Below, piece after piece: positions 1 to 21,166 of a stretch of 64,000 bases of DNA. The DNA comes from Bacteroidota bacterium (GTDB lineage Bacteria; Bacteroidota; Bacteroidia; UKL13-3): positions 32,400 through 96,399 of the forward strand of contig JAUXUD010000004.1 in NCBI GenBank assembly GCA_030680835.1. The letters run 5' to 3'. Each line of letters begins with the position of its first letter. Position 1 is the first letter of the stretch. Under the pieces are notes generated by a model. It was not told the DNA's origin. It searched no databases and was given only the letters and a program-made list of their open reading frames with translations. The position numbers and the translations under genes are program-made.

Positions 1-525
1 AATGATGGTGTAAATGATGGAATTGACAAATGTCCAAATGTAGCCGGAAGTCCTGCACATTCAGGTTGCCCCGATACCGATAACGATGGTGTATATGATG
101 ATATTGACAGATGTAAAACCATTCCCGGAACTGCAACAAATAACGGTTGCCCTGAATTGAAAAAGGAAACCAAACAATTGTTTCAAAAAGCATTACAAGG
201 GATCCAGTTTGAAACCGGAAAAGCAATTATCAAACCGGTATCCTATCCGATACTCAATTCAATTGTTAAAGTGATGAAAGAAAATCCAAGCTACAAATTG
301 CTGATAGGTGGCCATACTGATAATGTGGGTGAAGATGCCATGAATATGACCCTTTCACAGGATCGTGCATCATCAGTAGCCAATTATCTGATCACAAACG
401 GTGTTGATCCATTAAGAGTGGTTGCAACCGGATACGGTGAATCCTTACCGGTTGACACCAATGAGTCTGTAAAAGGACGCACACGCAACCGCAGGGTTGA
501 GTTTAAAGTTGAATTCCTTCAATAG
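1..525 (+). CDS. OmpA-family outer membrane protein with thrombospondin type 3 (Ca-binding Asp-rich) repeats, 5' end outside window
   Basis: Frame continues from position 1 (NDGVNDGIDKCP...DTDNDGVYDDIDRC repeats) into an OmpA-like C-terminal domain (IGGHTDNVG...NRRVEF). The 157..525 ORF is its C-terminal part. Confidence 0.75.
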   Translation, partial: NDGVNDGIDKCPNVAGSPAHSGCPDTDNDGVYDDIDRCKTIPGTATNNGCPELKKETKQLFQKALQGIQFETGKAIIKPVSYPILNSIVKVMKENPSYKLLIGGHTDNVGEDAMNMTLSQDRASSVANYLITNGVDPLRVVATGYGESLPVDTNESVKGRTRNRRVEFKVEFLQ

Positions 526-553
526 GAGTTTTCATAGGTTAAGTTTTAGTTTT

Positions 554-586
554 AAAAAGGCCTTCCGTTTTGCGGGGGCCTTTTTT
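554..586. terminator. Bidirectional rho-independent terminator between convergent genes
   Basis: aaaaaggcc...ggcctttttt stem-loop with a T-run on the plus strand and an A-run before it, so T-run on the minus strand. It lies between the OmpA stop (525) and the hemerythrin stop (594). Confidence 0.6.
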
Positions 587-593
587 ATGTTCC

Positions 594-1139
594 CTAATCC
601 ATCATCGTCAAATCCCGCCTCAATTCATCGGCAAGTTCTTTCCATTCTTCTTTACGTGCATCCCCCAATTCACGATCCCAATCTAAAAAGCGATGACCTA
701 TTTTTTCCAGTTCTGCCAGGTCGAAAATGCTTTCTGCCATTTGAAATACTTCTTCGTTTTCAACGGCTATATGATTCAGAAGTTCCTCTGTGTATTTTTC
801 AAGCTGATCATGCGCTTTTATATAATCATGTGCATTCAGACTTTGCTCTATGGATTTTATCATTTCGCGAAAATCTTCGTGGTTTTCAAACATTTCTTTG
901 ATGATGCCCTCTTCCAGCATTTCGTTGCGTTTATTCATCTCCGGGAACAGGATTACCTCTTCTTTATAATGATGATATTTATCGGCATAATTTCTGAAAA
1001 ACTGGATGAGTTTGCGGAGCTTGATATCGTATAAATCCGGGTCTCTGTTTATCAGATATTTCAGTTGTTTGGCCACATCTATGGCATTCACGATTACTTC
1101 GTGTTCATCGTATAAAATTTTCATAAATGGATTTGTCAT
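594..1139 (-). CDS. Hemerythrin-like (HHE cation-binding) domain protein
   Basis: 181 aa with spaced His/Glu/Asp pattern (YDEHEVI..., H..YKEEVILFPE..., HEDFREM...) typical of bacterial hemerythrin-like proteins. Last gene of the minus-strand array. Confidence 0.6.
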   Translation of the reverse strand: MTNPFMKILYDEHEVIVNAIDVAKQLKYLINRDPDLYDIKLRKLIQFFRNYADKYHHYKEEVILFPEMNKRNEMLEEGIIKEMFENHEDFREMIKSIEQSLNAHDYIKAHDQLEKYTEELLNHIAVENEEVFQMAESIFDLAELEKIGHRFLDWDRELGDARKEEWKELADELRRDLTMMD

Positions 1140-1146
1140 ATTGTTT

Positions 1147-2079
1147 TTATTTATTATTCAATTCTTCAAGACTTTGCTTTAAATATAAAATCATCATTTC
1201 TTTTCGGTAGGCTCTTGAATAGTAATCATTGTCTACAATTCTTGCTTTTTTAACCGCATCCTGAATGAGTGTTTCTGAGACATCCAGCATGCCTTCAACG
1301 ATTACGGGTTTTGGATCAATACCCCCTATAACTATTTTTATTTTCCCGTTTTGAACCAATGAAACGGCGGTGGTTAACGAGGTAAAATCAACCGCTTCAC
1401 GCGGACGTAATTTTTTGAACACTACTTTAAAGCTGTTGTCAAGAGGTAACATAATGTTTTTGATAATGGCCGTTTTTGAAAGATTTCTGGGGTTGATTCC
1501 ATCTCCGGTATAAATACTTTCCAATGGAATAATTTTTAAACTTTTTTCATCAATGATCTCAAGCTGTGCGTTCATGCTGATCAGTACCGGGGCAGTATCG
1601 GATACAAATTTTGAGAAACAGGCTTTGGTTCCACCGGTTGCGATGCATACTTCCCCATCGCATTTCAGACAGTATCCAACCGACTCACGCCACCAGGCAC
1701 TCTGGTTAAAATAGGTACATCTGTTTTCACATAAAATATTTCCGCCAAGGGTTGCTGTTTTTCTTAGGATGGGTGAAGCAACTTCATTCGCCGCTTTTAA
1801 TAATGCAGGAAATTGTTCTTTAATAATTTCATGTTTTTTAAGATCATCCAGACGAATTAATGATCCTATTTTCAGGAAATGAGTATCAGCATGCACTTCC
1901 TTTAGTATGGCGATACCGGAAAGGTCAATCAAACTTGCTGATTCATCATTTCCCTGAAACCTGTTTACCAGCACATCGGTTCCGCCTGCAATGTATTTAA
2001 AGCTTTGTACATGTTGCTTTGCCAGTGAAAGCGCTGCTTCAATGCTTGTTACCAGATGATATTTATTTTCAGCCATCAT
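1147..2079 (-). CDS. Xanthine dehydrogenase family FAD-binding medium subunit (CoxM/XdhB/HcrB-like) with a Cys-rich inserted loop
   Basis: AGGTDVLV FAD-binding motif. Cysteines at residues 117, 121, 137, 140, 145 and 154 fall within a ~40-residue stretch (LCENRCTYFNQSAWWRESVGYCLKCDGEVCIATGGTKAC) that ordinary CoxM/XdhB subunits lack. Start overlaps the upstream gene by 4 bp. Confidence 0.7.
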   Translation of the reverse strand: MMAENKYHLVTSIEAALSLAKQHVQSFKYIAGGTDVLVNRFQGNDESASLIDLSGIAILKEVHADTHFLKIGSLIRLDDLKKHEIIKEQFPALLKAANEVASPILRKTATLGGNILCENRCTYFNQSAWWRESVGYCLKCDGEVCIATGGTKACFSKFVSDTAPVLISMNAQLEIIDEKSLKIIPLESIYTGDGINPRNLSKTAIIKNIMLPLDNSFKVVFKKLRPREAVDFTSLTTAVSLVQNGKIKIVIGGIDPKPVIVEGMLDVSETLIQDAVKKARIVDNDYYSRAYRKEMMILYLKQSLEELNNK

Positions 2080-4847
2080 TTTTCTTTTAGCAGGTTTAAA
2101 ACATCTTCCGATTTAATGGGGAGTTTGGTAATCCGTATTCCAACCGCATCATAAATTGCATTTGCTATTGCAGGAATCACAGGATGCAAAGCGCCTTCTC
2201 CGCATTCTTTGGCTCCAAACGGACCTTCAGGATCGTTGGTTTCAATAATATTTGTGTGGAAATCCGGAGTGTCGAGAGAAGTTGGGATTTTGTAATCCAG
2301 GAAATTATTATTCATCAATAAGCCATTATAATAACGCATTTCCTCACTCATGGCCTGACCAATTCCCATGTGCCAGGAGCCTTCCAATTGTCCTTCTACT
2401 GCAAGCGGATTTAATGCTTTGCCACAATCATGCGCTCCCCATACATTGAGTATTTTTACATGTCCTGTTTGTTCGTTTACGTTCACTTCGGCTACACAGG
2501 CACCAAACGAATAGGAGGGACTTAAACCCGCGCCGGCACCTTTAAAATCACCACCCAGTTTAGGAGAAATATATTTTCCGCTCACAGAAACAGCACCGCG
2601 GTTTGCAGTTAAAATTTCAATGGCTTCCATCCAGCTCAGGTCTGTACTTTTATCATTGCTGAACACCCTTCCATCCAAAAAGTTGAGTTCATCTGTGGGT
2701 ACATTTTTTGATTTTGAAATGGCAGTGGCTATTTCAGCTCTCAAATTTTCAGCAGCATTTTTTGCAGCATTACCGGCCATAAAAGTTACCCGGCTCGAAT
2801 AGCTCCCCAGGTCAACCGGTGTGAGTAAGGTATCTGCTCCAATTACAAAAATATGATCCATGCCAATACCCAAAACTTCTGCCACAATTATGGCCAGCAT
2901 GGTATCACTGCCCTGTCCGATATCATTGGCACCTGATGTTACCAAAACCCGGCCGTCGAAATCTACTTTTAAATGTACAACTGATTGTGGCAATTCATTC
3001 CAGAAAATAGGCAAGGCACTGCCGCTGATAAAAAATCCACACCCTACGCCAAAACCATGTCCGGATGGCATTTTAGCATGTTTGTTTTTCCAGTTGGATT
3101 GCTCAGCAACTTTTTGAATTGACTCCCTGCTTCCGTTTGAAGTGATGCGGTATTGTCCAACCGTTAAGGTATTCGAATCCAGAAAATTTTTCATCCTGAG
3201 TTCAACCGGATCCATTTTTATCTTATGTGCAATATCATCAATTAAGGATTCAACAGCAAAGCGCGAATTCACCGCTCCATGCCCGCGCATGGCACCACAT
3301 TGAGGTTTGTTGGTATATACCCTATAGGTTCTGAACCCAAAATTATTTAATTTATAAGGAGCTTGCAGCAATACGCCGTTATAGTATGAAGTTACAACTC
3401 CAAAGCTTCCATAAGCACCTCCGTCAATGGCAATATCTGCATCCAGTACTTTTAGTATACCGTCATTATCGGCACCTAACTGAATGGTCATTTGAGAAGG
3501 ATGGCGACCATGATTGGTTAAAAAAACTTCTTCCCTCGACAAGCGTACATGTACCGGTTTGCCTGTTTTGCGTGCGATATACGCTACAATAATCTCATGC
3601 GGGAAGGGATCACCCTTGCCCCCAAAACCACCACCCACATGCGGCTTAATAACCCGTACCCGGTTTAAAGGAACTTCCATTGTTTTGGCAAGGGCTCTGT
3701 GCAAATAATGGGATACCTGCGTTGCGGAAATCATCGTTAAACCATTTTCATCCCAGAATGCCGAGGCGGAATGCGGTTCGGTAAATCCATGGTTCACACC
3801 TTCAAAAGTGAAGTCCATTTTACTCACTACCTCAGCATCTTTTAATCCTTGTTGCTGATCTCCAAAACGCAATTCAGCTTTTTTATGGACATTGTTATTT
3901 TGCTTGCCGTGTTCAGGATGAATTTTTTCATGTTCACCCACATCTTTTAATGAATCTTCAATAGTTAAATATTGCTTTATCGGATTGTATTTTATTTCAA
4001 TCAGCTTACAGGCCTTCAAAGCAATTGCTTCGGTATCGGCTGCCACGGCTGCCACAATTTCACCAATATACCGGGTCTTATGAATCGCTATGGCATTTTC
4101 ATCCTGGGAGATGGGAAGTACTCCGAAAGTAATGGGCAGTTCCTTACCGGTTGCAATATACCTTACCCCCTCTAATTTCATTGCCTTATCCGTATCTATC
4201 CACTCAATTTCTGCATGCGGAAAAATGCTTCTCACAAATTTAACCTGCAAGGCGCCTTTCAGTTTTATATCATCTGTATAATCAGCAATTCCCTGTACCT
4301 TTTTGCTTGCTTCAATATAAGGCCGGCTAACACCCACTGATTTGAGGTTTGCAGATTCCAAACTGTGAACTGTCAACTGTGAACCGTTAACTTCTTTTGC
4401 ATATTCAGCTACTGCCTCAATTATTTTCTTATAACCGGTACATCTGCATAAATTTCCGGATAGTCCTTCCTTAATCTGATCAATAGTAGGGTTGGAGTTA
4501 TGATTCACAAAATCCAGAGCCGTCATTACCATTCCCGGTGTACAAAATCCGCATTGAATGGCCCCTTTTTCTACAAATTTTTCCTGCAATTTATGGAGTG
4601 AACCATCCTGTGAAAGACCTTCAATGGTAGTTATATTGGCTGCATCAAATTTTAATGCAGGCGTAATACAACTGAGCACAGGTTCATTATTTACCAAAAC
4701 AGTACAAGCGCCACAACTGCCTTGTTCACATCCTATTTTTGTTCCGGTTAAACCTGCTTTTTCTCTGATAACGGTTGATAGCATTTCATGTTCTTCAACC
4801 AGGAGATGAAACTGTTTCCCATTTATATTTAGTTCGATTTGTTTCAT
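2076..4847 (-). CDS. Xanthine dehydrogenase family molybdoenzyme, fused [2Fe-2S] small subunit plus molybdopterin-binding large subunit (HcrC-HcrA-like / aldehyde oxidoreductase-like)
   Basis: N-terminus has both 2Fe-2S motifs (CEQGSCGACTV; CGFCTPGM; CRCTGY), followed by ~760 aa of large-subunit sequence (GGGFGGK). 923 aa. Confidence 0.75.
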   Translation of the reverse strand: MKQIELNINGKQFHLLVEEHEMLSTVIREKAGLTGTKIGCEQGSCGACTVLVNNEPVLSCITPALKFDAANITTIEGLSQDGSLHKLQEKFVEKGAIQCGFCTPGMVMTALDFVNHNSNPTIDQIKEGLSGNLCRCTGYKKIIEAVAEYAKEVNGSQLTVHSLESANLKSVGVSRPYIEASKKVQGIADYTDDIKLKGALQVKFVRSIFPHAEIEWIDTDKAMKLEGVRYIATGKELPITFGVLPISQDENAIAIHKTRYIGEIVAAVAADTEAIALKACKLIEIKYNPIKQYLTIEDSLKDVGEHEKIHPEHGKQNNNVHKKAELRFGDQQQGLKDAEVVSKMDFTFEGVNHGFTEPHSASAFWDENGLTMISATQVSHYLHRALAKTMEVPLNRVRVIKPHVGGGFGGKGDPFPHEIIVAYIARKTGKPVHVRLSREEVFLTNHGRHPSQMTIQLGADNDGILKVLDADIAIDGGAYGSFGVVTSYYNGVLLQAPYKLNNFGFRTYRVYTNKPQCGAMRGHGAVNSRFAVESLIDDIAHKIKMDPVELRMKNFLDSNTLTVGQYRITSNGSRESIQKVAEQSNWKNKHAKMPSGHGFGVGCGFFISGSALPIFWNELPQSVVHLKVDFDGRVLVTSGANDIGQGSDTMLAIIVAEVLGIGMDHIFVIGADTLLTPVDLGSYSSRVTFMAGNAAKNAAENLRAEIATAISKSKNVPTDELNFLDGRVFSNDKSTDLSWMEAIEILTANRGAVSVSGKYISPKLGGDFKGAGAGLSPSYSFGACVAEVNVNEQTGHVKILNVWGAHDCGKALNPLAVEGQLEGSWHMGIGQAMSEEMRYYNGLLMNNNFLDYKIPTSLDTPDFHTNIIETNDPEGPFGAKECGEGALHPVIPAIANAIYDAVGIRITKLPIKSEDVLNLLKEK
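2252..2449 (+). other. Six-frame-track ORFs of 60-100 aa that lie antisense within long well-supported CDSs (this span is one of about 80)
   Basis: Examples: plus-strand ORFs within 2076..4847 and 8039..10039, minus-strand ORFs within cusA (26346..30218) and the P-type ATPase (37325..39976), the three short ORFs inside hemB (52361..52555, 52406..52597, 52581..52766), and 497..901 and 693..1034 antisense to the hemerythrin gene. None has motifs or a credible start context, and the sense-strand genes have clear family signatures, so they are called artefacts. Confidence 0.9.
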
Positions 4848-5587
4848 AGATTCATATTTGCTCCAATGTTTTTACCGCCATCCACATACATTACCTGTCC
4901 GGTAATAAATTTTGTTTTTTCATTTGCCAGAAAGGAAACCACATTGGCAACATCTTCAGGTTTACCAATGGTTTTTGTAGGCTGAGCCTGTATGAGTTTT
5001 GTTAGCACGGATGCTTCCAGATTTTGGGTAAGCGGGGTGTCAATCAATCCCGGAGCCACTGCATTTACCCATACATTGTATTTTCCCAATTCCAATGCCA
5101 GCACCCTTGTTAATGCAACCACACCGGCTTTTGATGCCGAATAATTGGATTGCCCCGCATTGCCCAACCAGGCTCTGGAAGCGATATTAATAATGCGTCC
5201 GGAATTTTGTTCTTTCATTACCCTTGCGGCTTCCCGGCACATCATCCAGGTTCCTCTTAAATTAACTGCTATCACCGCATCAAATTCTTCTACACTCATT
5301 TTCCAGATCATTTTGTCTTTGATAATACCTGCATTATTCACAACCACATCAATGGAACCATTTATTTTTTTTGCCGCTGCAAATAATTTCTGAACCGAAA
5401 TCTCATCATTAATATTGGCTTCAATATAATTACTGAAATCACTTCCCATTTCTTTCTCCAGGGCAATGCCGGCTTCTTTATCAACATCAACCAATACTAC
5501 AAAAAAGCCATCGGCCTTTAACTTTGTGGCAATGGATTTGCCAATGCCCTTAGCTGCACCCGTTACTATCGAAACTTGCTTCTTCAT
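4844..5587 (-). CDS. Short-chain dehydrogenase/reductase (FabG/BadH-like, possible hydroxyacyl-CoA dehydrogenase)
   Basis: TGAAKGIGKSIA Rossmann motif, NNAG, and S...Y..ASK catalytic triad region. 247 aa. Confidence 0.7.
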   Translation of the reverse strand: MKKQVSIVTGAAKGIGKSIATKLKADGFFVVLVDVDKEAGIALEKEMGSDFSNYIEANINDEISVQKLFAAAKKINGSIDVVVNNAGIIKDKMIWKMSVEEFDAVIAVNLRGTWMMCREAARVMKEQNSGRIINIASRAWLGNAGQSNYSASKAGVVALTRVLALELGKYNVWVNAVAPGLIDTPLTQNLEASVLTKLIQAQPTKTIGKPEDVANVVSFLANEKTKFITGQVMYVDGGKNIGANMNL

Positions 5588-6374
5588 ATGTTTCAGTTTT
5601 TACCTTTTGTATAATTTCTTTTTGATTTGATACCGCAACAATTTTTGCCACAATACCCAGTGCAATTTCTTCCGGTCCGTTTTGACCAATATCAAACCCC
5701 ATGGGCATATCAACCCGGTCCAATTGTTCTTTACTGCAAATATTGTGTTCAAGGAATCTTTTTTTTGTGATCAATATTTTCCGCATGCTGCCAATCATTC
5801 CCAGGTATGCGGTATTTTGATTGATGCAGTAGGCCAGAATTTCACGGTCGTATTCATGCTGGTGTGTGCAGATAATCACATAGGTATCCGAATCAAACAA
5901 AAGTTTGGAAAAAGCTTCTTTATGGTTCAGGGGAAATTTTTGAATATCGGGGACATCTGTTTTGTCAAGCATTTTGCTGCGCTCATCAATCAGGATGGTT
6001 TTAAATTGTAATTTTTGTGCGTAGAAGGCCACATGGCTTCCAATATGTCCTGAACCAAATACGATTAATTGTTTTTGTGGTTTTTGGGGTTCAATAAAAA
6101 TTTTCATGGTACCTCCACAGCACATATTTTGTTTGAGTAAGGCATAGTCTATTAATTTAGATTCATTTTGCAGAATGAGTTTAATGGCATCGGCGATAAC
6201 CTGCGATTCTACGTTTCCTCCGCCAATGGTACCTGCAGAATCGCCATTTGCCCAGATCAGCATTTTTGCACCTGCTTTCAAAGGTGTTGAACCCGATGTT
6301 TCAACAACCGTACAGAGTGCAAGCTGCTCTCTTTTTTCCAGTGCACATTGCAAAATATTAAACAGGGATTGCAT
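5550..6374 (-). CDS. xdhC: XdhC/CoxI family molybdenum cofactor insertion chaperone
   Basis: N-terminal XdhC_CoxI domain and a C-terminal Rossmann-like domain (LIVFGSGHIGSHVA). Sits next to Mo-enzyme genes. Confidence 0.7.
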   Translation of the reverse strand: MQSLFNILQCALEKREQLALCTVVETSGSTPLKAGAKMLIWANGDSAGTIGGGNVESQVIADAIKLILQNESKLIDYALLKQNMCCGGTMKIFIEPQKPQKQLIVFGSGHIGSHVAFYAQKLQFKTILIDERSKMLDKTDVPDIQKFPLNHKEAFSKLLFDSDTYVIICTHQHEYDREILAYCINQNTAYLGMIGSMRKILITKKRFLEHNICSKEQLDRVDMPMGFDIGQNGPEEIALGIVAKIVAVSNQKEIIQKVKTETYEEASFDSNGCS

Positions 6375-6972
6375 GGTTAAAATATTTTATATAATCTTCT
6401 TCCGTGTTAATATTTGCCAATAGCTTTTCATCGTCAACCGGCACTTCTTCAAAGGAAAACTTTTCAAGAATCACTCTCAGGTCTTCAGAATCCGATTTTA
6501 TTTCTTTGATATGCTGAAGTATTTCTTTTGAAAGTAAAACGGGATGCCCTTTCTTACCCAAATAAACCGGAACCACATATTTACCAGGTTCAATTTTAGC
6601 TTTCATTTGATTGAGTAAACCGGATGTTGTAAATGGATTATCGATATTCTGTATGAAGACTGGAAAAGAATTGTCAATATTGTTTAAGCCCAGTTTGATA
6701 CTGTAAAAGCGGTCGGATACCGGTCTGATATTGCAAACAATTTTTATACTGTTTGCATTAAGATTTTCATGAATTTGTTTTTTCAATTGTTTTATTAATT
6801 GTGAATGGGTAACCAGAACAATATTTTCAATGCCGGCCTGGGTATATTGATAAACGAGATTTTGTATAAAGTTAAATTCGGGATCAAAGGACAACCAGGC
6901 TTTAGGCTGACCCAGTCTTGCGGATTTTCCGGCCATTAAAATGATTGCGCTATATTTATTTTTTACATCCAT
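6358..6972 (-). CDS. mocA: MobA-like NTP transferase, probable molybdenum cofactor cytidylyltransferase (MocA)
   Basis: ILMAGKSARLGQPKAWL nucleotidyltransferase motif. The track ORF 6358..7146 has a hydrophobic N-terminal run that overlaps the upstream gene. The internal Met at 6972 (MDVKNKY) abuts the upstream stop at 6977. Confidence 0.55.
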   Translation of the reverse strand: MDVKNKYSAIILMAGKSARLGQPKAWLSFDPEFNFIQNLVYQYTQAGIENIVLVTHSQLIKQLKKQIHENLNANSIKIVCNIRPVSDRFYSIKLGLNNIDNSFPVFIQNIDNPFTTSGLLNQMKAKIEPGKYVVPVYLGKKGHPVLLSKEILQHIKEIKSDSEDLRVILEKFSFEEVPVDDEKLLANINTEEDYIKYFNHAIPV

Positions 6973-6976
6973 ATGA

Positions 6977-8017
6977 TCAGGTACCCTTATGAGTAAGCGC
7001 GCTGTTGTGCAAGTAGTGGTTGAGAAATAAAACAGAACCAAATAGCAGAAAAGCACCGGTTTGATGCAATATTCCGATAAAGATAGGAACGCCGTACAGG
7101 ATATTGAAAACACCCAGTAAAAATTGAACTCCATAAATGAAGCCAATAAATTTTATCAGATTTTGCAGGGTAGGCGTGAGGTTGTATTTTAAGGATTTAA
7201 AATAAACAAGTACTATAGGGATTAAGACAAGCCATGCCAGGGTTCTATGGATAAACTGAACACCTGCCTGCCCTTCAATAAAATTTTTCCAAACGGGTTT
7301 CAGCAGGGTTACTTCATTTGCTATCCAATTTTCATTCATTTTTGGAAATGCCGGAAACATATAACCGGCTTTTAGCCCTGCAACAAAAGCGCCATAAACT
7401 ATTTGTATGATAACCATTCCCAACAGGATGCGGCTTATATTTTTCATTGAGGAATAATTATCCAATTCTTTTTTAGGATAGAACAAATCCAATGCATACC
7501 AAAATGAAAATCCAAATGCAGCAAAGGCGGTCAACAAATGCAGGGCAAGGCGGTAATGACTTACATGCGGATTTTTTTGCAGACCGCTTTTTACCATAAA
7601 CCATCCGATGAATCCCTGGAGTGAACCGATCAGCAAAAGGATTAACATTTTTTTTATAAAGCCTTCCGGAAATTTTTTTCGAATGAGAAAAAATAAAAAG
7701 GGAATCAGAAAAACCACCCCGATAAACCTGCCGATAAAGCGGTGAATATACTCCCACCAAAAAATATTTTTATAATCCTGGAGGGTGAAATCTTTATTGA
7801 TAATTTTGAATTCCGGTGATTGCCGGTATTTATCAAACTGCAGCATCCATTCCTGTTCATTTGAGGGAGGCGTTGAACCCGTAATGTTCCATTCAACCAT
7901 CGACAATCCCGAATTTGTTAAACGCGTAATGCCCCCAACAACTACCATCACGTAAATTAATATACAACCGCTTAGCAGCCAGTATATAATTAATCTATTT
8001 GATTTTTGTGTCTGCAT
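6977..8017 (-). CDS. ctaA: Heme A synthase homolog (COX15/CtaA family, type 2 without the Cys pair), polytopic membrane protein
   Basis: 346 aa with about 8 TM segments. It carries the EYIHR and HxxLA..H motifs in each half that are typical of CtaA. Confidence 0.55.
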   Translation of the reverse strand: MQTQKSNRLIIYWLLSGCILIYVMVVVGGITRLTNSGLSMVEWNITGSTPPSNEQEWMLQFDKYRQSPEFKIINKDFTLQDYKNIFWWEYIHRFIGRFIGVVFLIPFLFFLIRKKFPEGFIKKMLILLLIGSLQGFIGWFMVKSGLQKNPHVSHYRLALHLLTAFAAFGFSFWYALDLFYPKKELDNYSSMKNISRILLGMVIIQIVYGAFVAGLKAGYMFPAFPKMNENWIANEVTLLKPVWKNFIEGQAGVQFIHRTLAWLVLIPIVLVYFKSLKYNLTPTLQNLIKFIGFIYGVQFLLGVFNILYGVPIFIGILHQTGAFLLFGSVLFLNHYLHNSALTHKGT

Positions 8018-8038
8018 TTAATCGTTTGAATGGTTCAA

Positions 8039-10039
8039 TTATTCGCCTTTATATGCCACTTTTTGTCCTATAGAGGTTAATCCCAGCAAAGCGTCCTGTG
8101 TTTTGAAAATCTCCGGCAGATAAATCAATTCATCTGCGCAACCTTTTGCGTCTTCAATCAGTTTATCGGCAAAATGCAAAGCGATGGGTGCCTTAAACGA
8201 TAAAGTTTTACAAATGCGGTCTGCCTCTTCTTTTGAAATCATGGTGTCATGAACCTGATGGGTTAGCAATTCATTCAGGGTATGATCTTCAAAGAAATTT
8301 TTCACTGCAAGCCACTTATCACTCAGGATGGTTGCCGTTGGTGAAGGTAATGGTAAATTGCCGTACATGAAGCCGTACATTTCTTCCACGCTTATTACCT
8401 GATCAACCAGCCCTATTTCAAAAGCGTCTTTAGCACTCAACATTTTTCCTGTATGAATGAGGTATTTGCTCAAAGCTTTACCAATTCTTCGCGTGCTTCT
8501 TTGGGTTCCACCCAAACCCGGATAAATTCCAATACCGGTTTCAGGAAACGACATACTGGCACCCGGTAATGCAAGAATCAGATCTGCACATAATGCCAGT
8601 TCCAATCCTCCGCCCAGGGCAAGTCCATTCAATACCGCGATTACCTTTTTACTTGAATGGTCGATCAGTTCAAAAACCTCCTGTCCGAAACGGGTAAAAC
8701 GTTCTATATTTTCTATTGACCGGGCTTTCATGTTTTTTACAAAAAATTTTATATCAGCTCCGGCAACGAATGCTTTTCCTGAACCGCATAAAAAGATTTG
8801 TTCAATTTCCATGTCCATATTTGCCTTGCCGAATTTGTCGAGCAACTGATTCATCACATCTTCATTCAGGGCATTCAGGTCTTCGGGGCGTGACATGGTA
8901 ATGATGGCGTTTCTGCCCGATTTTTCATAAGTAACAAATTCCTGTTTCCAGAACGCCTTACCGATGGACAGAGGAATCAATGTATTGTACTTATGGGCTG
9001 TTTTTTCAATCAGTCTTCTGGTTTCCGGCTCTCCGTATTTGTTCATTAACTCAATCGGACCCGCTTTCCATTTCAAACCAATTCTTGCACCCCTGTTTAT
9101 ATCGGTGGCTGAACAAATTTTTTCGTCAAGTAACTGAGAACAAACTAAAAATTCAATCCCCAGCATTTGATCTGCAATTTCGTTTCTGATTTTTTCATCT
9201 GTTAAAATTTCACCTTCCAGATTCCAGGCTTGATTTATTTCTGTTTGGTCAATCAATTTTTCAGATGTTTTATACAGTTCGCCATAAACCTCAAGCGTTT
9301 TTTGAGAATGGCAGGCAATAGGAACACCGGTGGCATTCATCAGGGCGAAGGGACCCATACCGATTCCAAATTTTTCCATACATACCGCATCGATGGTTGG
9401 TATGTTTCCGATGTTTTCTTCCAGCAAACGGCAGGCTTCATTGAGCCAGGGAACAAAAAACCGGTTCACCACAAAGCCGTATGAATCCTTACAGTAAATG
9501 GCATCCTTCCCGGCTAAGAATGCAAATCTTTTTGCGGCATCAAATACCTGCGGCGAGGTTTTTAAATTGGGAATAATCTCAAGCAGGCGATTTTTAGCAG
9601 CATGATAGAAAAAATGCAGGCCAATAAAACGCTCTCGGTTTGTTACATATTCACTTAACTCATTCACCGAAAAAGATGACGTATTGGTAGCGATAATGCA
9701 GGTATCCGATACAACTTTCGACAGGTGTTTAAACAAGTGTATTTTCGCGTCAAAATCTTCAAAGATTGCCTCTATTACAAGATCGCAAATACTTAAATCT
9801 TCTATGTTAGCAGTGCCTGTAATATTTTTCAACGTATGGTTAACCTGGTCTTGTGTAAATACTTTTTTATCAAATCCTTCCTGTAAAGAATTTTTAATAT
9901 TGTTGATTCCTTTTTCTACAAAATCGATGGCACGATCGGCCAGGATTACTGTGAATCCTTCCTGTGCAAACTTTTGAGCCAGGGCTGAACCCATGGTTCC
10001 CGCTCCAATAATTCCAATAATTTTTATTGATCTGTTCAT
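8039..10039 (-). CDS. Bifunctional 3-hydroxyacyl-CoA dehydrogenase (N-terminal) / enoyl-CoA hydratase (C-terminal)
   Basis: N-terminus IGIIGAGTMGSALAQ (3HCDH NAD-binding). The C-terminal ~300 aa is a crotonase fold (GSGKAFVAGADI...GLALGGGLELAL). 666 aa. Confidence 0.75.
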   Translation of the reverse strand: MNRSIKIIGIIGAGTMGSALAQKFAQEGFTVILADRAIDFVEKGINNIKNSLQEGFDKKVFTQDQVNHTLKNITGTANIEDLSICDLVIEAIFEDFDAKIHLFKHLSKVVSDTCIIATNTSSFSVNELSEYVTNRERFIGLHFFYHAAKNRLLEIIPNLKTSPQVFDAAKRFAFLAGKDAIYCKDSYGFVVNRFFVPWLNEACRLLEENIGNIPTIDAVCMEKFGIGMGPFALMNATGVPIACHSQKTLEVYGELYKTSEKLIDQTEINQAWNLEGEILTDEKIRNEIADQMLGIEFLVCSQLLDEKICSATDINRGARIGLKWKAGPIELMNKYGEPETRRLIEKTAHKYNTLIPLSIGKAFWKQEFVTYEKSGRNAIITMSRPEDLNALNEDVMNQLLDKFGKANMDMEIEQIFLCGSGKAFVAGADIKFFVKNMKARSIENIERFTRFGQEVFELIDHSSKKVIAVLNGLALGGGLELALCADLILALPGASMSFPETGIGIYPGLGGTQRSTRRIGKALSKYLIHTGKMLSAKDAFEIGLVDQVISVEEMYGFMYGNLPLPSPTATILSDKWLAVKNFFEDHTLNELLTHQVHDTMISKEEADRICKTLSFKAPIALHFADKLIEDAKGCADELIYLPEIFKTQDALLGLTSIGQKVAYKGE

Positions 10040-10045
10040 TTTTGA

Positions 10046-10819
10046 TTAATTATTAGTCCACTGTGGTTTTCTTTTTTCCAGAAAGGATTGAATCCCTTCA
10101 TTTGCATCATGGGTTCCCATTAAATTGTTTACATAGAGTTGCTCCAGCTGCGGTAAAAAATTACTGAGGATATGATTGAATTTAATTCTAACGGCTTTAG
10201 TAGCGTACCTCAGTGAAGAAGCACTTTTCGGCAAAATGTTTTGTATGATCCATTCATTTACCCCTTGCTCCAATGCAGTTTTATCTTCATACAAATAATT
10301 GAGCAATCCTATGTTTTTAGCTTCTTCCGCACCGATTGTTTTTCCGGTTATAATTAATTCTTCGGCCCGGGCCAAACCAATTTTTTCGGGAAGCAGGATG
10401 GAAGCAGGCGGTGGAAAAACGCCCAGAATAATTTCGGGCTGACCTAATTTTGCTGTTTGATCGGCAAACATAAAGTCGCACATTAATGCGAGCTCCAGTC
10501 CACCACCCAGGCATTGGCCTGAAATTTTAGCCAGGGTGGGAATGGACAAATCGCGAAGGGTATAAAACAACTGATGAAAGGATCGAAGCATGGCAGCGGC
10601 CAGATCTTTCTGGTGCTCCTCTACGCTGGCTCCAAATGAAAAGTGTTTCCCTGCACCCTCAAAAATAATCAGTTTAAGATTGTTTGCTCCGCTAAAGGAA
10701 TACAATACTTTCTGCATTTCTTCCATCATCAAATGGTCGAGCACATTTCCCTTGCCATCATTTAGTAGAATGTGTGCAACCGATTGTTCGAATAAATAAG
10801 ATACTTGTATTTTTTCCAT
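10046..10819 (-). CDS. Enoyl-CoA hydratase/isomerase family protein (candidate dienoyl-CoA hydratase, Dch/BamR-like)
   Basis: 257 aa crotonase with AGKHFSFGASVEEH, GQCLGGGLELALMCD and FxxPE..LG motifs. Confidence 0.6.
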   Translation of the reverse strand: MEKIQVSYLFEQSVAHILLNDGKGNVLDHLMMEEMQKVLYSFSGANNLKLIIFEGAGKHFSFGASVEEHQKDLAAAMLRSFHQLFYTLRDLSIPTLAKISGQCLGGGLELALMCDFMFADQTAKLGQPEIILGVFPPPASILLPEKIGLARAEELIITGKTIGAEEAKNIGLLNYLYEDKTALEQGVNEWIIQNILPKSASSLRYATKAVRIKFNHILSNFLPQLEQLYVNNLMGTHDANEGIQSFLEKRKPQWTNN

Positions 10820-10821
10820 AA

Positions 10822-11922
10822 TTAAACTTTAGCAGTCTGGTATTGCGGTGAAATTTTATGGTGTAATTCTTCATTCCATTCATGACCTTCGGCCAGCAAC
10901 TGACGTAATAAAATAAAATCAACTTCACGGTTTTCTTTCGGACCTTCATTAAAAGCTTTGAACCCGGCTTTGGCTTCACTCATCATATTCAATGCCAGCC
11001 ATTCGCGGCTGCCTTCTTTATTTTTATCCCAGTGTTCCAGTTTAAATTTACGTACCTCACTAATGGTTTTACTCATGCAATTCGGAAAGGTATGCAGGAT
11101 TTTTGCAATCAAGTTATTTACCGATTTATCAAGCATGCTTAAATCGGTTTCAGCATGTGCAATCATTTCTTTTGCTTTTACAAGTGCCTCTCCGGTTTTC
11201 ATCGTTCCAAATGCAAATCTTCCAAATTCATCGGTTATTTTTTCGGTTTGAACCAAAGGATTTGCAATAAATTTTCCATCTACTTTCAGCACGGGAGCGA
11301 TATCTGTAATTACTCCAAAATAATAAGCCTGATGAGCTGTCCAGGGTTCACATAAGGTTAACGACATCATGGCCCGTTCTACACCAACATAGAGTGGAAG
11401 AAAGTCAGTAGCACCACCAATTGCCGCACTGCCATGCTTCGGACCTGCTTGTCCGAACCGTGCCATGTCACTGGCAATGCTAAAATCGCATGCCATTCCG
11501 ATTTCCTGGCCACCGCCGATTCTCATTCCGTTTACCCTGCAGATAACAGGTTTTTCACACATCAGAATGTTAGAAACCATATCGTTAAACAATCTCATGT
11601 ATTGCGAATATTCCTGAGGATTGCCAGAATAATATTCGGCGTATTCCTTGGTATTCCCACCGGTGCAAAAGGCTTTGTCGCCAACGGCTGTGAGCACTAC
11701 AGCCACAATGCTTCTGTCGTTTGATGCTTCCCTGAAAGCCAGGATGATTTCCTTAATGGCTGCTGTGGTATATGAATTAAATTGTTTGGGATTATTCAAG
11801 ATAATCCATGCATTGAATAATTTATCAACGGGCGTTCCATCCTTATCCAGGCATGGGCGTTTTTCGAAAAGAATCTCTTTGAAATCGATGTCAACAAGAT
11901 TGTGATTTTTTAATTCAGTCAT
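10822..11922 (-). CDS. Long crotonase-family protein with ~100 aa C-terminal extension (candidate ring-opening 6-oxocyclohex-1-ene-1-carbonyl-CoA hydrolase, Oah/BamA-like)
   Basis: 366 aa. Crotonase core (AFCTGGN..., VNGMRIGGGQEIGMACDFSIA) plus a C-terminal extension. The length and architecture match BamA/Oah rather than MenB or BadI (~260-285 aa). Confidence 0.45.
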   Translation of the reverse strand: MTELKNHNLVDIDFKEILFEKRPCLDKDGTPVDKLFNAWIILNNPKQFNSYTTAAIKEIILAFREASNDRSIVAVVLTAVGDKAFCTGGNTKEYAEYYSGNPQEYSQYMRLFNDMVSNILMCEKPVICRVNGMRIGGGQEIGMACDFSIASDMARFGQAGPKHGSAAIGGATDFLPLYVGVERAMMSLTLCEPWTAHQAYYFGVITDIAPVLKVDGKFIANPLVQTEKITDEFGRFAFGTMKTGEALVKAKEMIAHAETDLSMLDKSVNNLIAKILHTFPNCMSKTISEVRKFKLEHWDKNKEGSREWLALNMMSEAKAGFKAFNEGPKENREVDFILLRQLLAEGHEWNEELHHKISPQYQTAKV

Positions 11923-11930
11923 ATGTATAA

Positions 11931-12995
11931 TTATTTAAAGTCGGGTGTTAAAACAGAACGTTTGGTATATTTATGTTCGAGTGTATTATTAAAAACTTCA
12001 TTGATTTGAGACATGGGAAAAGTTTCAACAAACTGACCAATTTTCAGTTTATCATCCGCAACGAGTGCAACCACTTCCGGATATAATTCGGGTTTGCATC
12101 CCCAGGTTCCGATGAGCTTGGCATCAAAAGCCATCAGGTTGCTTAAACGCACTTCAACTTTATCCATAGTAAAACCAACGATAGACAGGGTAGAGGCAAA
12201 AGTTACCAGATTAAATGCGAGCTCCTGACCCGGTTTTGATCCGGATATTTCAAATATTTTCCATCCATATTTTGGGGCTTTCAGTTCTTTTGCAATTTCT
12301 TTTACTTTCTCTTTGATGGTTTTTAAATCAAGACCTTTGGTATTTAATGTCGCATCTACGCCATTCAGTTTGGCAATGGCTAATTTCTCATCACTGATAT
12401 CCAGTGCCAAAACTTTTGCACCAAATATTTTGGCAATTTGTGCCCCGTAAATACCCACGCCGCCTACACCAATTACAATTGCAAAATCTCCTGCCACCAG
12501 TTCCGATTTTTTAACAACCTGGTATGGAGTTGAAATCGCATCAGCGATAACAGAGAGTTGTTCCAATGAATATTTTTCTAAAACTTTATCGGGTACCTCA
12601 CATAAATATTTGGAAGGTACTTTTATATGAGAAGCAAATCCTCCGTCAAAATCATTACCAGGCATCAGTTGATTTCTGCATATATTGCTCCGGTCGCTTT
12701 TGCATAAATCACATTCACCACAAGGCAATACCGCGGGTATAATTACATTTTTTCCGATCCATTTTTCATCCCCATCAACCACGGTTCCGCTTATTTCATG
12801 CCCGAGTGTTAAAGGCAATGCATGTTTGGTTTGAACCCCATGATGCCAGAAACTAATGTCGGTATGACAAACTCCGCAGCCGGCAATTTTTACCAGGGTT
12901 TCACCCTCTTTCAATTCCGGCATATCACTTTCTGATAAAACAAATGGCTTATTTAATTCAGTCATTTGCCATTGGTACATTTTATTTTCTTCCAT
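11931..12995 (-). CDS. Zinc-dependent medium-chain alcohol dehydrogenase family (candidate 6-hydroxycyclohex-1-ene-1-carbonyl-CoA dehydrogenase, Had/BamQ-like)
   Basis: GCGVCHTDISFWHHG...GHEISGTV zinc-ADH signature, a structural-Zn Cys cluster (CGECDLC) and GVGGVG Rossmann motif. 354 aa. Confidence 0.6.
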   Translation of the reverse strand: MEENKMYQWQMTELNKPFVLSESDMPELKEGETLVKIAGCGVCHTDISFWHHGVQTKHALPLTLGHEISGTVVDGDEKWIGKNVIIPAVLPCGECDLCKSDRSNICRNQLMPGNDFDGGFASHIKVPSKYLCEVPDKVLEKYSLEQLSVIADAISTPYQVVKKSELVAGDFAIVIGVGGVGIYGAQIAKIFGAKVLALDISDEKLAIAKLNGVDATLNTKGLDLKTIKEKVKEIAKELKAPKYGWKIFEISGSKPGQELAFNLVTFASTLSIVGFTMDKVEVRLSNLMAFDAKLIGTWGCKPELYPEVVALVADDKLKIGQFVETFPMSQINEVFNNTLEHKYTKRSVLTPDFK

Positions 12996-14263: not shown

Positions 14264-16111
14264 TTAATTGGATATAGATTCTGAAGTAACTAATTCTTTA
14301 ATGTTGTTTACAAGCCAGTTTTCTTTAGCCAATGTGGCGGCACCATAAGCAACCACAAACTGGGGATTGTCAACGGGATTGATTTCTTTATTAAATTTCT
14401 CACTTAAAATATTACTGATGTATGGATGATGCGCAACCACGCCCCCTATCAGGTAGGTGGGGATATTCGGAAACAGTTTCATTTTAGCAACTTTATTGGC
14501 AATGGAAATATAAATGCCTCTTGCGATATCCTGTTTCAGCATCCCATCAAATACCCATGTCATAATTTCTGTTTTTGCAAACACCGTACAAAAACTATTG
14601 AGCTCTTTATTGTATGAAGAGTGTGCAGCGAGACTGCTCATTTCTTCGATATTGATTTCGGCACGTTCCGAAATTTCCTCAAGGAAAGAGCCCGTTCCGG
14701 CGGCACATTTATCATTCATATAGAAATTGGCAACAAGGTTTTCATTGTTGGTATGAATGATCTTGATGTCCTCACCCCCGATATCAATAATGTTTTTTTC
14801 ACCGGGATAAAACGCTGCCACACCTGAGGCTGCGCAGTTTATTTCTGTTTTAATAATATCGGTTTCGTTAAAATGTTTTCTACCGTAACCGGTTGCACAA
14901 CTGTGTTTAATTAAAAATGCAGCATAGATTGACTTAAGCACATTTTTCATGGCATGCCTGTCTTTATTCATGGTAGGCAGTATATACCTGAACACCGGAG
15001 TGCCGTTCCCGTCAATAACAACAAATTTTGTAAATGCTGATCCCAGATCGATACCGAGGAACCCATTATGCTCTTTATAATAAATGGATGAACGGTTTTT
15101 TTCAAGCAAACCTTTATTGATAATTTTTTTATTCAGTTCATCTTCTACCCCCGGAAACCGGTTCAGTACATTTTTATTGGTCATGGCTTTCACCATATTT
15201 GTAAATGCCAGGTTAAGCGAAGTTTTTACGTAATGTTTTTTCCCGTATTCAACTATTTTCCCATTAAAATAATCTATTTCGGTTGGTCTGTTATTGATCA
15301 GGTCAACAGATAATGAAGGGAAGTGGTCACCTCCTTTTTTCAGGTATTGCATGCATTTTCTTACAAAATCATCCGAAAAGCGAATTTTCTCTTTTTCGGC
15401 AACATCAATGCCTTCGTTAATGATTTGTTCAATCAGTTCTACGGTGTCATCATCAGCCATTGCTTCAGCCATGGTTAGCCTGCCAACTCCGCATAGAGCA
15501 CTCAGTGAGGCATTCAAAATGGTTTTTTCCCAGATCCCTTTAACCAGTTCAAACGAATCCAGTTTATTTGTTTTGAAACCAATGCTGTTTAAGGTATCGG
15601 CCAATAGTTGCGCTTCTTTGGTTCTGTTGTCATCAATTGAACCTACATAATTTGGCGGAGTTACGAAAGATACGCGCACAATATTCGGGGCGCGCATGTT
15701 ACCTGCAAAATTAATAATCATGCGCAATGTTTTTGATTCACCAAACGTTGCGCTGATTAAACTTTCAACATCTATTCCGTTTTGTGCAGAAACCAAAGTA
15801 AGCTTATCTGTATTAATTTGTTCCGCTTCTTTAACAGCTCCAATTGTCTGATAGGATTTTAAAGAGAAGATGAGATAATCAAGATCCTGTGCTCTCATAT
15901 CAACAATCGAATCATATACATTGTCGAAACGGGTGGTTGATACCAAGGCGTTCTCAAGAATAATTCCGTCTTCTCTTACTTTTTTGAGTTTAAAATCATC
16001 TTTGTCGCAGATTGAAACATCGCAACCGGCCTCTTTAAATTTAACAGCGAGAATCATCCCCACAGGACCTAAACCTACAATTCCAACCTTAATTTTTTTT
16101 GTTTTTTCCAT
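14264..16111 (-). CDS. Fusion protein: ketopantoate reductase-like (ApbA/PanE family NAD(P)H oxidoreductase) N-terminal half plus BadF/BadG/BcrA/BcrD-type ATPase (CoA-substrate-specific enzyme activase) C-terminal half
   Basis: N-terminus KIKVGIVGLGPVGMILAVKF Rossmann motif plus an ApbA C-domain. The C-terminal ~270 aa is GIDLGSAFTKFVVID...NDKCAAGTGSFLE (ASKHA ATPase with the cluster-ligand Cys pair). 615 aa. Confidence 0.65.
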   Translation of the reverse strand: MEKTKKIKVGIVGLGPVGMILAVKFKEAGCDVSICDKDDFKLKKVREDGIILENALVSTTRFDNVYDSIVDMRAQDLDYLIFSLKSYQTIGAVKEAEQINTDKLTLVSAQNGIDVESLISATFGESKTLRMIINFAGNMRAPNIVRVSFVTPPNYVGSIDDNRTKEAQLLADTLNSIGFKTNKLDSFELVKGIWEKTILNASLSALCGVGRLTMAEAMADDDTVELIEQIINEGIDVAEKEKIRFSDDFVRKCMQYLKKGGDHFPSLSVDLINNRPTEIDYFNGKIVEYGKKHYVKTSLNLAFTNMVKAMTNKNVLNRFPGVEDELNKKIINKGLLEKNRSSIYYKEHNGFLGIDLGSAFTKFVVIDGNGTPVFRYILPTMNKDRHAMKNVLKSIYAAFLIKHSCATGYGRKHFNETDIIKTEINCAASGVAAFYPGEKNIIDIGGEDIKIIHTNNENLVANFYMNDKCAAGTGSFLEEISERAEINIEEMSSLAAHSSYNKELNSFCTVFAKTEIMTWVFDGMLKQDIARGIYISIANKVAKMKLFPNIPTYLIGGVVAHHPYISNILSEKFNKEINPVDNPQFVVAYGAATLAKENWLVNNIKELVTSESISN

Positions 16112-20184: not shown

Positions 20185-21021
20185 TTACACCATCACTGCC
20201 TGTTTTTCTTTCAGTCTGATATGCCTGAATCCTCCCCATAAGGCTGCGCCCAATGCACCTGCGTATATGGCATCCGGGTGGGTTTTAATCACATATTTTT
20301 TCCCGGTTTCCAACAATTGTTCTTCTATTGCCTGGATCATTCCGGTATTCAGCGACATGCCTCCTGTTATGATAATCGGTGATTCCGCCTTTAAGGAACT
20401 CAGCAGTTTTATAATCCGGTTTGCAATGGAAAGATGAATGCCTTTGATAATATTGGGAGTTTTGATACCTCTTGAAACCATGTTAATCACATCGGTTTCA
20501 GCCAGTACTGCGCAAATTCCTGATGACAATTCAGGGGCTTCTGCCTGCAACGAAACGGTTCCTACTTCTTCAATCGACAGTCCAAGATAACGCGAAATAT
20601 TTTCAACAAATTGTCCGGATCCCGAAGCACATTGTCCGGTCATTTTATAATCCTGCACGCGTGCATCTGTTGATATTTTGATGGCCCGTACGTACAAAGC
20701 ACCCATATCCACTACTGTTACGGCATCCGGGAAGAAAAAATTGGCCCCTTTTGCATGGGTTGTCATCCCATAAAAATGTCCGCGTTTGCGCTTCACCAGA
20801 TCGCCTTCACCGGTTGATGCCAGATAAGCAATTTCTTCATATTGAAGATTGTTTCTTTTCAGCATGCTTTGAATTAATTCTTCTGCAACCACTGAAGGAT
20901 TCCGCTTTCTGATTTTTTCAGTATGCTTGTCAACGATCTTCGGATTGTTGGAATAATCTACCAAAATAAGTTTGATAAAATTTGATCCCACATCAATCCC
21001 CATTGTATAAAAGTTTTCCAT
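20185..21021 (-). CDS. bcrD: Benzoyl-CoA reductase-like small ATPase subunit (BcrD/BadG family activase-type ASKHA ATPase)
   Basis: 278 aa. MGIDVGSNFIKLILVD... and TGQCASGSGQFVE (Cys pair for the bridging [4Fe-4S] cluster). Fourth gene of the C-B-A-D order. Confidence 0.65.
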   Translation of the reverse strand: MENFYTMGIDVGSNFIKLILVDYSNNPKIVDKHTEKIRKRNPSVVAEELIQSMLKRNNLQYEEIAYLASTGEGDLVKRKRGHFYGMTTHAKGANFFFPDAVTVVDMGALYVRAIKISTDARVQDYKMTGQCASGSGQFVENISRYLGLSIEEVGTVSLQAEAPELSSGICAVLAETDVINMVSRGIKTPNIIKGIHLSIANRIIKLLSSLKAESPIIITGGMSLNTGMIQAIEEQLLETGKKYVIKTHPDAIYAGALGAALWGGFRHIRLKEKQAVMV

Positions 21022-21103
21022 AATTTTTTAATTCTTACTTCTTAATTCTATTTCATATTGTACATTGTTCTCGACTTAGCTCGGACTGACATGCGGTATA
21101 TCT

Positions 21104-21166
21104 TACATTGTACATTGTACATCGTAATTCGTACATCGTACATCGTAAATCGTACATTGTACATCA
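21104..21166. repeat. Tandem array of 9 copies of the 7-bp unit TACATYG (TACATTG/TACATCG/TAAATCG/TAATTCG), with an additional solo copy at 21061
   Basis: Read directly: tacattg tacattg tacatcg taattcg tacatcg tacatcg taaatcg tacattg tacatca. The array runs into the bcrA-like stop codon. Confidence 0.8.

Follow-up and report, generated by a model that had tools for sequence, protein, structure and literature searches.

Whether a molybdenum enzyme composed of only two polypeptides may be a 4-hydroxybenzoyl-CoA reductase (dehydroxylating; 4-HBCR) is the question raised by two adjacent genes, one hcrCA-like and one hcrB-like, in a 64,000-nt stretch of the contig JAUXUD010000004.1 (assembly GCA_030680835.1, positions 32,400-96,399 of the forward strand), which belongs to a Bacteroidota metagenome-assembled genome (MAG). 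This whole stretch is hereafter called the window, and all coordinates given below are positions within it. We consider it probable that the two genes encode 4-HBCR in a two-polypeptide form with 4-hydroxybenzoyl-coenzyme A (CoA) as the substrate, and highly probable that the enzyme is, in a wider sense, a reductive dehydroxylase of the 4-HBCR type feeding the benzoyl-CoA pathway. The argument starts from the domain content, the conservation of Cys ligands, the closest relatives, the phylogenetic position, and the gene linkage, all of which were directly established. The Bacteroidota origin of the contig is borne out by a G+C content of ~39% and by an encoded protein with a Por_Secre_tail sorting domain. 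Both open reading frames (ORFs) are intact, overlap by 4 bp, and are translationally coupled. In the NCBI records, the fused protein (MDP1725256.1) is named 'molybdopterin-dependent oxidoreductase' and the flavin adenine dinucleotide (FAD) subunit (MDP1725255.1) 'FAD binding domain-containing protein', generic names that result from scores below the NCBIfam equivalog cut-offs; many close homologues are labeled 4-hydroxybenzoyl-CoA reductase subunits by the JGI pipeline. The two genes and their parts are as follows.

2076..4847, minus strand: fused hcrCA-like gene, 923 amino acids (aa), from the ORF call and Pfam
4383..4847, minus strand: gamma-like domain with two [2Fe-2S] sites, residues 1-155 of the 923-aa protein
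4332..4379, minus strand: gamma/alpha linker, residues 157-172, a low-confidence AlphaFold segment between Fer2_2 and Ald_Xan_dh_C
2079..4340, minus strand: alpha-like Mo-cofactor part, residues 170-923, aligning with residues 10-763 of 1rm6_A
1147..2079, minus strand: hcrB-like FAD subunit gene, 310 aa, Pfam FAD_binding_5
1618..1731, minus strand: Cys-rich insertion of the FAD subunit, residues 117-154, predicted [4Fe-4S] loop

The 923-aa protein had been read in the first-pass annotation, made from the sequence alone, as a fusion of the [2Fe-2S] small subunit to the Mo large subunit. In agreement with this, the Pfam domains Fer2 and Fer2_2 (residues 7-146) are followed by Ald_Xan_dh_C, MoCoBD_1, and MoCoBD_2 (residues 186-861), and the eight canonical [2Fe-2S] Cys residues are found at positions 40/45/48/60 and 99/102/134/136; the estimate that HcrC and HcrA together would reach about 930 aa is matched by the PDB chains (161 + 769 = 930). 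Across both proteins, the xanthine oxidase (XO) family domain set detected by Pfam is complete, comprising two [2Fe-2S] domains, the Mo-cofactor domains, and an FAD-binding subunit, and the gene order of small, large, and FAD subunits is the same as in hcrCAB, as had also been pointed out. The best PDB sequence match of the Mo part is HcrA of Thauera (1rm6_A; 581 bits, 40% identity over 746 positions), followed by Desulfovibrio MOP (346 bits) and PaoC (199 bits), and the gamma-like part matches 1rm6_C with 141.6 bits over residues 4-148. The catalytic Glu is kept in the alignment to 1rm6_A (E884, corresponding to HcrA E726), the clade-specific MRGHG motif is present in the alpha-like part, and the best NCBIfam family for the large subunit is 4hydrxCoA_A (TIGR03194, 803 bits), followed by XdhA (544 bits). 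In a Foldseek search of the PDB with the AlphaFold model of the fused protein, whose predicted local distance difference test (pLDDT) value is 74.6, 1rm6_A ranks first (E 5.9e-66; template modeling score TMt 0.87). The full-length model also superposes on the single-chain MOP (TMq 0.79, TMt 0.81), and the fusion is therefore compatible with the usual domain packing. Neither a signal peptide-like nor a twin-arginine translocation (Tat) N-terminus was found in the fused protein, in which the ferredoxin fold starts at once.

The FAD subunit carries the feature most specific to the proposed identity. It contains six Cys residues in total, located exactly where the first-pass annotation had placed them (Cys117, Cys121, Cys137, Cys140, Cys145, and Cys154), and in a simulation the chance of six random Cys residues in 310 positions all falling within 38 residues was p = 1.35e-4. 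All six are invariant in 120 homologues of the FAD subunit that share 59-89% overall identity with the query. The FAD_binding_5 match extends over 208 query residues for 166 profile positions, corresponding to an insertion of ~42 residues, and the alignments of ordinary FAD subunits (CoxM/CutM, nicotinate dehydrogenase, and XdhB) end near residue 115-117, at the start of the insertion, so that its previously stated absence from CoxM/XdhB subunits is now borne out. The best PDB sequence match is HcrB (1rm6_B; E 2.8e-40, 141.7 bits, 33% identity over 267 positions), with Escherichia coli PaoB (5g5g_B, 84 bits) and a Methylobacillus aldehyde oxidase (5y6q_B, 58 bits) as the runners-up. Within the loop, the pairwise alignment proposed earlier as a check proved to be gap-free and places Cys121/Cys137/Cys145/Cys154 on Cys122/Cys138/Cys146/Cys155 of 1rm6_B, with a spacing of 16/8/9 in both proteins; these four residues sit in an NQSxWWR...GYCLK motif common to the query and HcrB and are conserved across the whole HcrA clade described below. 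Correspondence with Cys residues of HcrB is limited to these four of the six, as Cys117 aligns to HcrB Q118 (the fifth Cys of HcrB lying one position earlier, at 117) and Cys140 aligns to HcrB Y141. Both of the latter are found in the Bacteroidota clade only, being absent from HcrB and from two distant members of the HcrA clade (L007 and L008). The best NCBIfam family for the FAD subunit is 4hydrxCoA_B (TIGR03195, 202.2 bits; next XdhB, 112), and the Pfam CO_deh_flav_C signature was not detected in the 310-aa protein. Structure prediction likewise favors HcrB in overall fold, 1rm6_B ranking first in the Foldseek search of the PDB (E 3.1e-22, TM 0.83) with a model of pLDDT 79.8, but it is uninformative for the loop itself, as residues 118-157 have pLDDT <50 and the Cys geometry cannot be judged from the model; such low values are as expected for a loop that would fold around a cofactor absent from the model. 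By homology, Cys121, Cys137, Cys145, and Cys154 are predicted to bind a [4Fe-4S] cluster.

The earlier statement that this cluster is what lets the enzyme family run in the reductive direction was too strong. The presence of a [4Fe-4S] loop alone is not diagnostic of reductive chemistry, because the oxidative PaoB and 5y6q_B have such a loop and the reductive Ucdh lacks it (PMC11760930, PMC12771579). A loop whose sequence and spacing agree with those of HcrB, as is the case here, does serve as a good marker.

The phylogenetic position points to the same relatives. Searching 1.84 billion cluster representatives (50% identity) exhaustively with HMMER yielded the 150 best relatives of the large subunit. 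For a neighbor-joining (NJ) tree, a distance method, 148 sequences were assembled: the 141 best-scoring representatives with a length of 700 aa or more, Thauera HcrA (residues 10-763, taken from the query alignment) as the sole characterized reference, five Bacteroidota homologues, and the query itself. In this tree, calculated from 727 columns of the Mo part left after trimming, HcrA and the query belong to a 21-member clade, which had 98/100 bootstrap support in an NJ subset of 64 taxa. Grouping with the CO, nicotinate, or xanthine dehydrogenases, named beforehand as the result that would speak against the proposed identity, was not seen. Clade-signature positions were those at which the HcrA residue has a frequency of 80% or more within the clade and of 15% or less among the 127 remaining sequences, and at all 18 of them the query carries the HcrA residue (e.g., Y326, H360 in MRGHG, which is F or Y elsewhere, and E723), a test that is not independent of the tree. 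Fused (~890-950 aa) and unfused (~740-830 aa) forms both occur inside the HcrA clade on several branches; the gamma-alpha fusion is therefore a recurrent variation not peculiar to the window, and the number of subunits, as judged from these sequences, looks like a variable trait of 4-HBCR instead of a defining one. Hundreds of close Bacteroidota homologues exist: clustering at 90% identity gives at least 120 distinct clusters for the fused protein, with 76-93% identity to the query, and nearly all of their named members are Bacteroidota, including Saprospiraceae and Bacteroidia. Among 58 aligned homologues, the identity of the large subunit ranges from 76 to 94%.

The gene context is that of anaerobic aromatic degradation. 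Between 594 and 25257, only minus-strand genes are found, each overlapping its neighbor or lying a short gap away from it, and they form a 24.6-kb same-strand cluster with the hcr genes near its end. In the direction of transcription, the order is bcrC, bcrB, bcrA, bcrD, an ADP-forming acyl-CoA synthetase, a lone HGD-D protein, and a 154-aa ORF, then a ketopantoate-reductase/activase fusion, thiolase, had, oah, dch, a 3-hydroxyacyl-CoA dehydrogenase/hydratase fusion, and ctaA, and then mocA, xdhC, a short-chain dehydrogenase/reductase (SDR) gene, hcrCA, hcrB, and a hemerythrin gene. The bcr genes, co-expression with which on 4-hydroxybenzoate had been proposed as a check in the first-pass annotation, thus lie in this same cluster. 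The members most closely tied to the proposed function are the following.

20185..25257, minus strand: bcrC, bcrB, bcrA, and bcrD for a Thauera-type class I benzoyl-CoA reductase (NCBIfam)
10046..12995, minus strand: dch, oah, and had for the steps after ring reduction (NCBIfam)
6358..6972, minus strand: MocA-like molybdenum cofactor cytidylyltransferase (Pfam NTP_transf_3; NCBIfam matur_MocA_YgfJ, 84 bits, below cut-off)
5550..6374, minus strand: XdhC-family Mo-cofactor insertion chaperone, 274 aa (Pfam XdhC_CoxI and XdhC_C; NCBIfam)
4844..5587, minus strand: SDR-family oxidoreductase, 247 aa (Pfam adh_short_C2), overlapping the start of hcrCA by 4 bp
594..1139, minus strand: hemerythrin HHE-domain protein, 181 aa (Pfam Hemerythrin), starting 7 bp downstream of hcrB

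By NCBIfam, BcrB (700 bits, cut-off 486.6), BcrC (460, 421.2), Oah (584, 464.5), and Had (467, 338.7) pass their cut-offs, BcrA (440 bits) and BcrD (302 bits) fall just below theirs, and Dch (223, 292.5) is below. The linkage extends beyond the window. Among seven related loci, taken from contigs encoding relatives and tabulated for homologues of the window genes, six show benzoyl-CoA reductase genes or dch/had/oah no more than 10 kb away from their hcr-like genes, including L007 (GCA_018335975.1), a distant fused homologue with 49% identity; the exception, L008, has the unfused form. (A scan of GTDB species genomes with peptide patterns gave only 3 loci, the patterns being too specific, and was not used for gene context.) An operon is suggested by the overlaps and short gaps only; the counts of sigma-70 promoters and terminators over 1..8200 were not above those in shuffled controls.

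By homology with the Thauera enzyme, from which cofactor occupancy, electron donor, catalytic direction, and substrate are all extrapolated, the following mechanism may be drawn. A low-potential donor, which is reduced ferredoxin in Thauera, would reduce the [4Fe-4S] cluster in the loop of the beta (FAD) subunit, and the electrons would travel onward via FAD and both [2Fe-2S] clusters to the Mo-molybdopterin-cytosine-dinucleotide (MCD) cofactor. At the Mo center, the para-hydroxyl group carried by 4-hydroxybenzoyl-CoA would leave as water to yield benzoyl-CoA, which would then be dearomatized by the ATP-dependent BcrCBAD, whose genes lie 15 kb upstream in the same orientation, and the ring-reduced product would be passed on to Dch, Had, Oah, and the beta-oxidation enzymes. 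MocA and XdhC, encoded in the same operon-like block, would supply and insert the cofactor. MocA makes MCD, the form bound by 4-HBCR, and XdhC inserts the cofactor (PMC2997495); the presence of both genes in one block serves as the genomic proxy for the MCD cofactor here.

Several observations weigh against this assignment. Identity to the characterized Thauera enzyme is only 33% for beta and 40% for alpha, and all three subunit models score below the NCBIfam equivalog cut-offs (alpha 803 versus 994.55; beta 202.2 versus 404.55; gamma, 4hydroxCoAred, TIGR03193, 166.1 versus 257.8), with two other small-subunit models of NCBIfam even outscoring the 4-HBCR gamma model on the gamma-like part. The 4-HBCR-like identity put forward at first thus stands on the best matches and the clade support and falls short of strict equivalog membership by NCBI criteria, membership and the exact substrate being assigned by analogy. 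A motif search of the window found no relevant ORF of the ferredoxin type (CxxCxxCxxxC). The SDR and hemerythrin partners are conserved in a clade-specific manner, and we know of no counterpart in the Thauera system of either these partners or the two extra invariant Cys residues. In HcrB, Cys122/Cys138/Cys146/Cys155 are presumed to be the [4Fe-4S] ligands, and the alignment as such attests to the conservation of Cys residues only. Finally, another substrate is possible in principle, as a related dehydroxylase of the XO family acts on a compound that is not a CoA ester (PMC12771579).

These points bear most directly on the alternative that the enzyme is a reductive dehydroxylase of the 4-HBCR type with the same electron path ([4Fe-4S], FAD, [2Fe-2S], and Mo) acting on another phenolic substrate, such as protocatechuoyl-, vanilloyl-, or 4-hydroxyphenylacetyl-CoA, or a free phenolic compound. 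The missed cut-offs and the low identity to HcrA would be accounted for, and the coupled SDR, present in every Bacteroidota-type locus and absent from L007 and L008, suggests an extra chemical step tied to the enzyme; a precedent is provided by Ucdh, which is 32.7% identical to 4-HBCR and dehydroxylates urolithin C (PMC12771579). However, the linkage to BcrCBAD/Dch/Had/Oah in six of the seven loci points to a product entering the benzoyl-CoA pathway, the full set of clade-signature residues is common to HcrA, and the [4Fe-4S] loop is that of HcrB, unlike Ucdh, so that we regard a different substrate as quite unlikely. An enzyme of the Ucdh/UcdCFO type itself was rejected on account of the [4Fe-4S] loop in the query, the features of Ucdh being taken from PMC11760930 and PMC12771579.

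The second alternative, an ordinary oxidative Mo hydroxylase or aldehyde oxidoreductase (like PaoABC or the xanthine, nicotinate, or CO dehydrogenases) with an incidental loop and with electrons flowing outward from Mo, appears very improbable. Oxidative enzymes can carry a Cys loop at this place, as exemplified by PaoB and 5y6q_B, the XdhA models and MOP give considerable scores (544 and 346 bits), and the fused chain superposes on MOP. Against this, HcrA and HcrB outscore every hydroxylase by far, the spacing in the loop is that of HcrB and not of PaoB, the HcrA clade is well supported by the bootstrap, no Tat or signal sequence was found, the query, in contrast to MOP, has an FAD subunit, and the context is the anaerobic benzoyl-CoA pathway instead of purine, nicotinate, or CO genes. 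Each of the specific candidates was set aside in turn: PaoABC by the scores (PaoB 84 versus HcrB 142 bits, PaoC 199 versus HcrA 581 bits, and NCBIfam PaoC 281 versus a cut-off of 1180) and the lack of an export signal; MOP by the coupled FAD subunit and the NCBIfam pterin_aldehy score (493 versus a cut-off of 1100); and the CO, xanthine, and nicotinate dehydrogenases by the grouping with HcrA, the scores, and the gene context. That the genes are decayed, non-functional remnants or that the Cys residues cluster by chance, in favor of which nothing was found, has a negligible probability in view of the intact and translationally coupled ORFs, the identity levels among the homologues, the invariance of the six Cys residues, and the simulated clustering probability.

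With a two-polypeptide 4-HBCR as the preferred identity, the clade-specific partners deserve consideration. The order SDR-hcrCA-hcrB was found in every Bacteroidota-type locus examined, with the SDR gene directly upstream of hcrCA. The SDR is FabG-like (best NCBIfam score 250 bits, below cut-off) and translationally coupled to hcrCA; it is a candidate for a 3-hydroxyacyl-CoA dehydrogenase step producing or following the aryl-CoA. A hemerythrin gene stands beside the hcr module in five of the six Bacteroidota-type loci (L001, L002, L003, L006, and P0211; absent from L004), sometimes upstream of the SDR gene instead, and its product is a candidate for a role in O2/NO sensing or Fe-S repair. One might speculate that the Bacteroidota module, consisting of the SDR, the fused HcrCA, the six-Cys HcrB, and usually hemerythrin, is a functionally adapted 4-HBCR that marks a large uncultured Bacteroidota guild, an idea that we regard as unlikely. 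The adaptation could consist in an altered or redox-switchable cluster ligation or in protection or repair of the Fe-S centers by hemerythrin; if true, either would let facultatively aerobic Bacteroidota use the enzyme, and the guild (Chitinophagales, Saprospiraceae, and Flavobacteriales) would possess a complete ATP-dependent pathway for anaerobic degradation of phenolics. Enzymes of anaerobic benzoyl-CoA degradation have been reported to be expressed by a MAG of the Flavobacteriales in a nitrate-reducing culture that degrades benzene (PMC8099898).

Other genes of the window are listed below.

6977..8017, minus strand: heme A synthase COX15/CtaA, between the beta-oxidation genes and mocA
14264..16111, minus strand: fusion of a ketopantoate-reductase-like part (ApbA and ApbA_C) with a BcrAD/BadFG activase-type ATPase, 615 aa
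16161..16625, minus strand: 154-aa ORF with a weak AMP-binding_C_3 match only (E 8e-5)
16654..17874, minus strand: lone HGD-D protein, 406 aa (NCBIfam HadB 221 bits, BcrB 162 bits, both far below cut-off)
17906..20035, minus strand: ADP-forming acyl-CoA synthetase, 709 aa, between bcrD and the HGD-D gene, also in L002
25975..26316: 113-aa ORF upstream of the CusA-like genes
26346..33371, plus strand: CusA-like resistance-nodulation-division (RND) pump (1290 aa), outer-membrane factor, and CusB-like adaptor with a heavy-metal-binding domain, divergent from the aromatic cluster

The ctaA gene occurs at the same place in L001 and not in L003 or L004; CtaA serves aerobic respiration, which suggests a facultatively aerobic host. 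The long ORF with a TTG start called for MocA overlaps ctaA, and the true start is likely Met59 of this ORF (at 6972), giving ~204 aa, the MocA relatives having 185-211 aa. The activase fusion and the HGD-D protein, a pair encoded within the benzoyl-CoA cluster and retained in related loci of Bacteroidota, do not correspond to a standard subunit of benzoyl-CoA reductase (BCR); they may form an ATP-driven reductase or dehydratase of their own. In the P0211 locus, the slot of the 709-aa ADP-forming synthetase is occupied by a 582-aa AMP-forming ligase, and the two are thus alternative CoA-activating enzymes. No homologue of the 154-aa ORF was found in the related loci. In L007, a two-subunit 2-oxoacid:ferredoxin oxidoreductase (6964..9342 of that locus, plus strand) is encoded just upstream of hcrCA, with one small ORF without Pfam hits in between and class I BCR-like genes further upstream, an arrangement consistent with local regeneration of the ferredoxin donor, which the window lacks. 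The CusA/CusB-like set resembles a metal efflux system.

The enzyme's family, fold, cofactors, and role in the pathway are already known; the window holds a divergent member of this family with two of its subunits fused, and not a new kind of system. It is distinguished by the subunit fusion and a few clade-specific accessories, the enzyme chemistry itself not being new; no description of a fused HcrCA or of a Bacteroidota 4-HBCR was found in the literature searched. Recognition of a divergent two-polypeptide 4-HBCR clade would improve the annotation of proteins with generic names at NCBI, and the smaller number of polypeptides may offer a simpler target for heterologous expression. The complete ATP-dependent route for anaerobic degradation of phenolics and benzoate is known mainly from Proteobacteria and Firmicutes, and the present locus adds to the evidence that Bacteroidota of sludge and sediment carry it.

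It is worth comparing the two-polypeptide enzyme with the known systems. Thauera aromatica HcrCAB (PDB 1RM6/1SB3) shares with it the domain set, the small-large-FAD gene order, the catalytic Glu, the clade, the benzoyl-CoA neighborhood, and the FAD-subunit loop of ~40 residues with four Cys residues in the 16/8/9 spacing, and it is the best match of both proteins in sequence and fold. It differs in having three separate subunits in place of a 923-aa chain uniting gamma and alpha, and the query further differs in its 33-40% identity, its two extra loop Cys residues (Cys117 and Cys140), its coupled SDR and hemerythrin genes, and its host, a Bacteroidota MAG and not a proteobacterium. HbaBCD of Rhodopseudomonas palustris is the other genetically characterized 4-HBCR. 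Desulfovibrio gigas MOP (PDB 1SIJ/1VLB) also has its [2Fe-2S] domains fused to the Mo-cofactor domains in a single chain, but it lacks an FAD subunit and a [4Fe-4S] cluster, oxidizes aldehydes, and is clearly outscored by HcrA (346 versus 581 bits). E. coli PaoABC (5G5G) and the Methylobacillus aldehyde oxidase (5Y6Q) have a Cys-containing insertion at the same position of the FAD subunit, whereas their loops are longer with a different Cys spacing and each of their three subunits (small, FAD, and large) is a chain of its own; in addition, PaoABC is periplasmic and oxidative. Within the XO family, only two reductive dehydroxylases, 4-HBCR and Ucdh, have been characterized (PMC12771579). Ucdh/UcdCFO of Enterocloster bolteae, compared here by description only, resembles the query in its family, its MCD cofactor, its reductive dehydroxylation para to an electron-withdrawing carbonyl, and its dependence on XdhC, and in clear contrast has no [4Fe-4S] loop, uses NADH as the donor and a substrate that is not a CoA ester, consists of three subunits, and shows no linkage to benzoyl-CoA genes (PMC11760930, PMC12771579).

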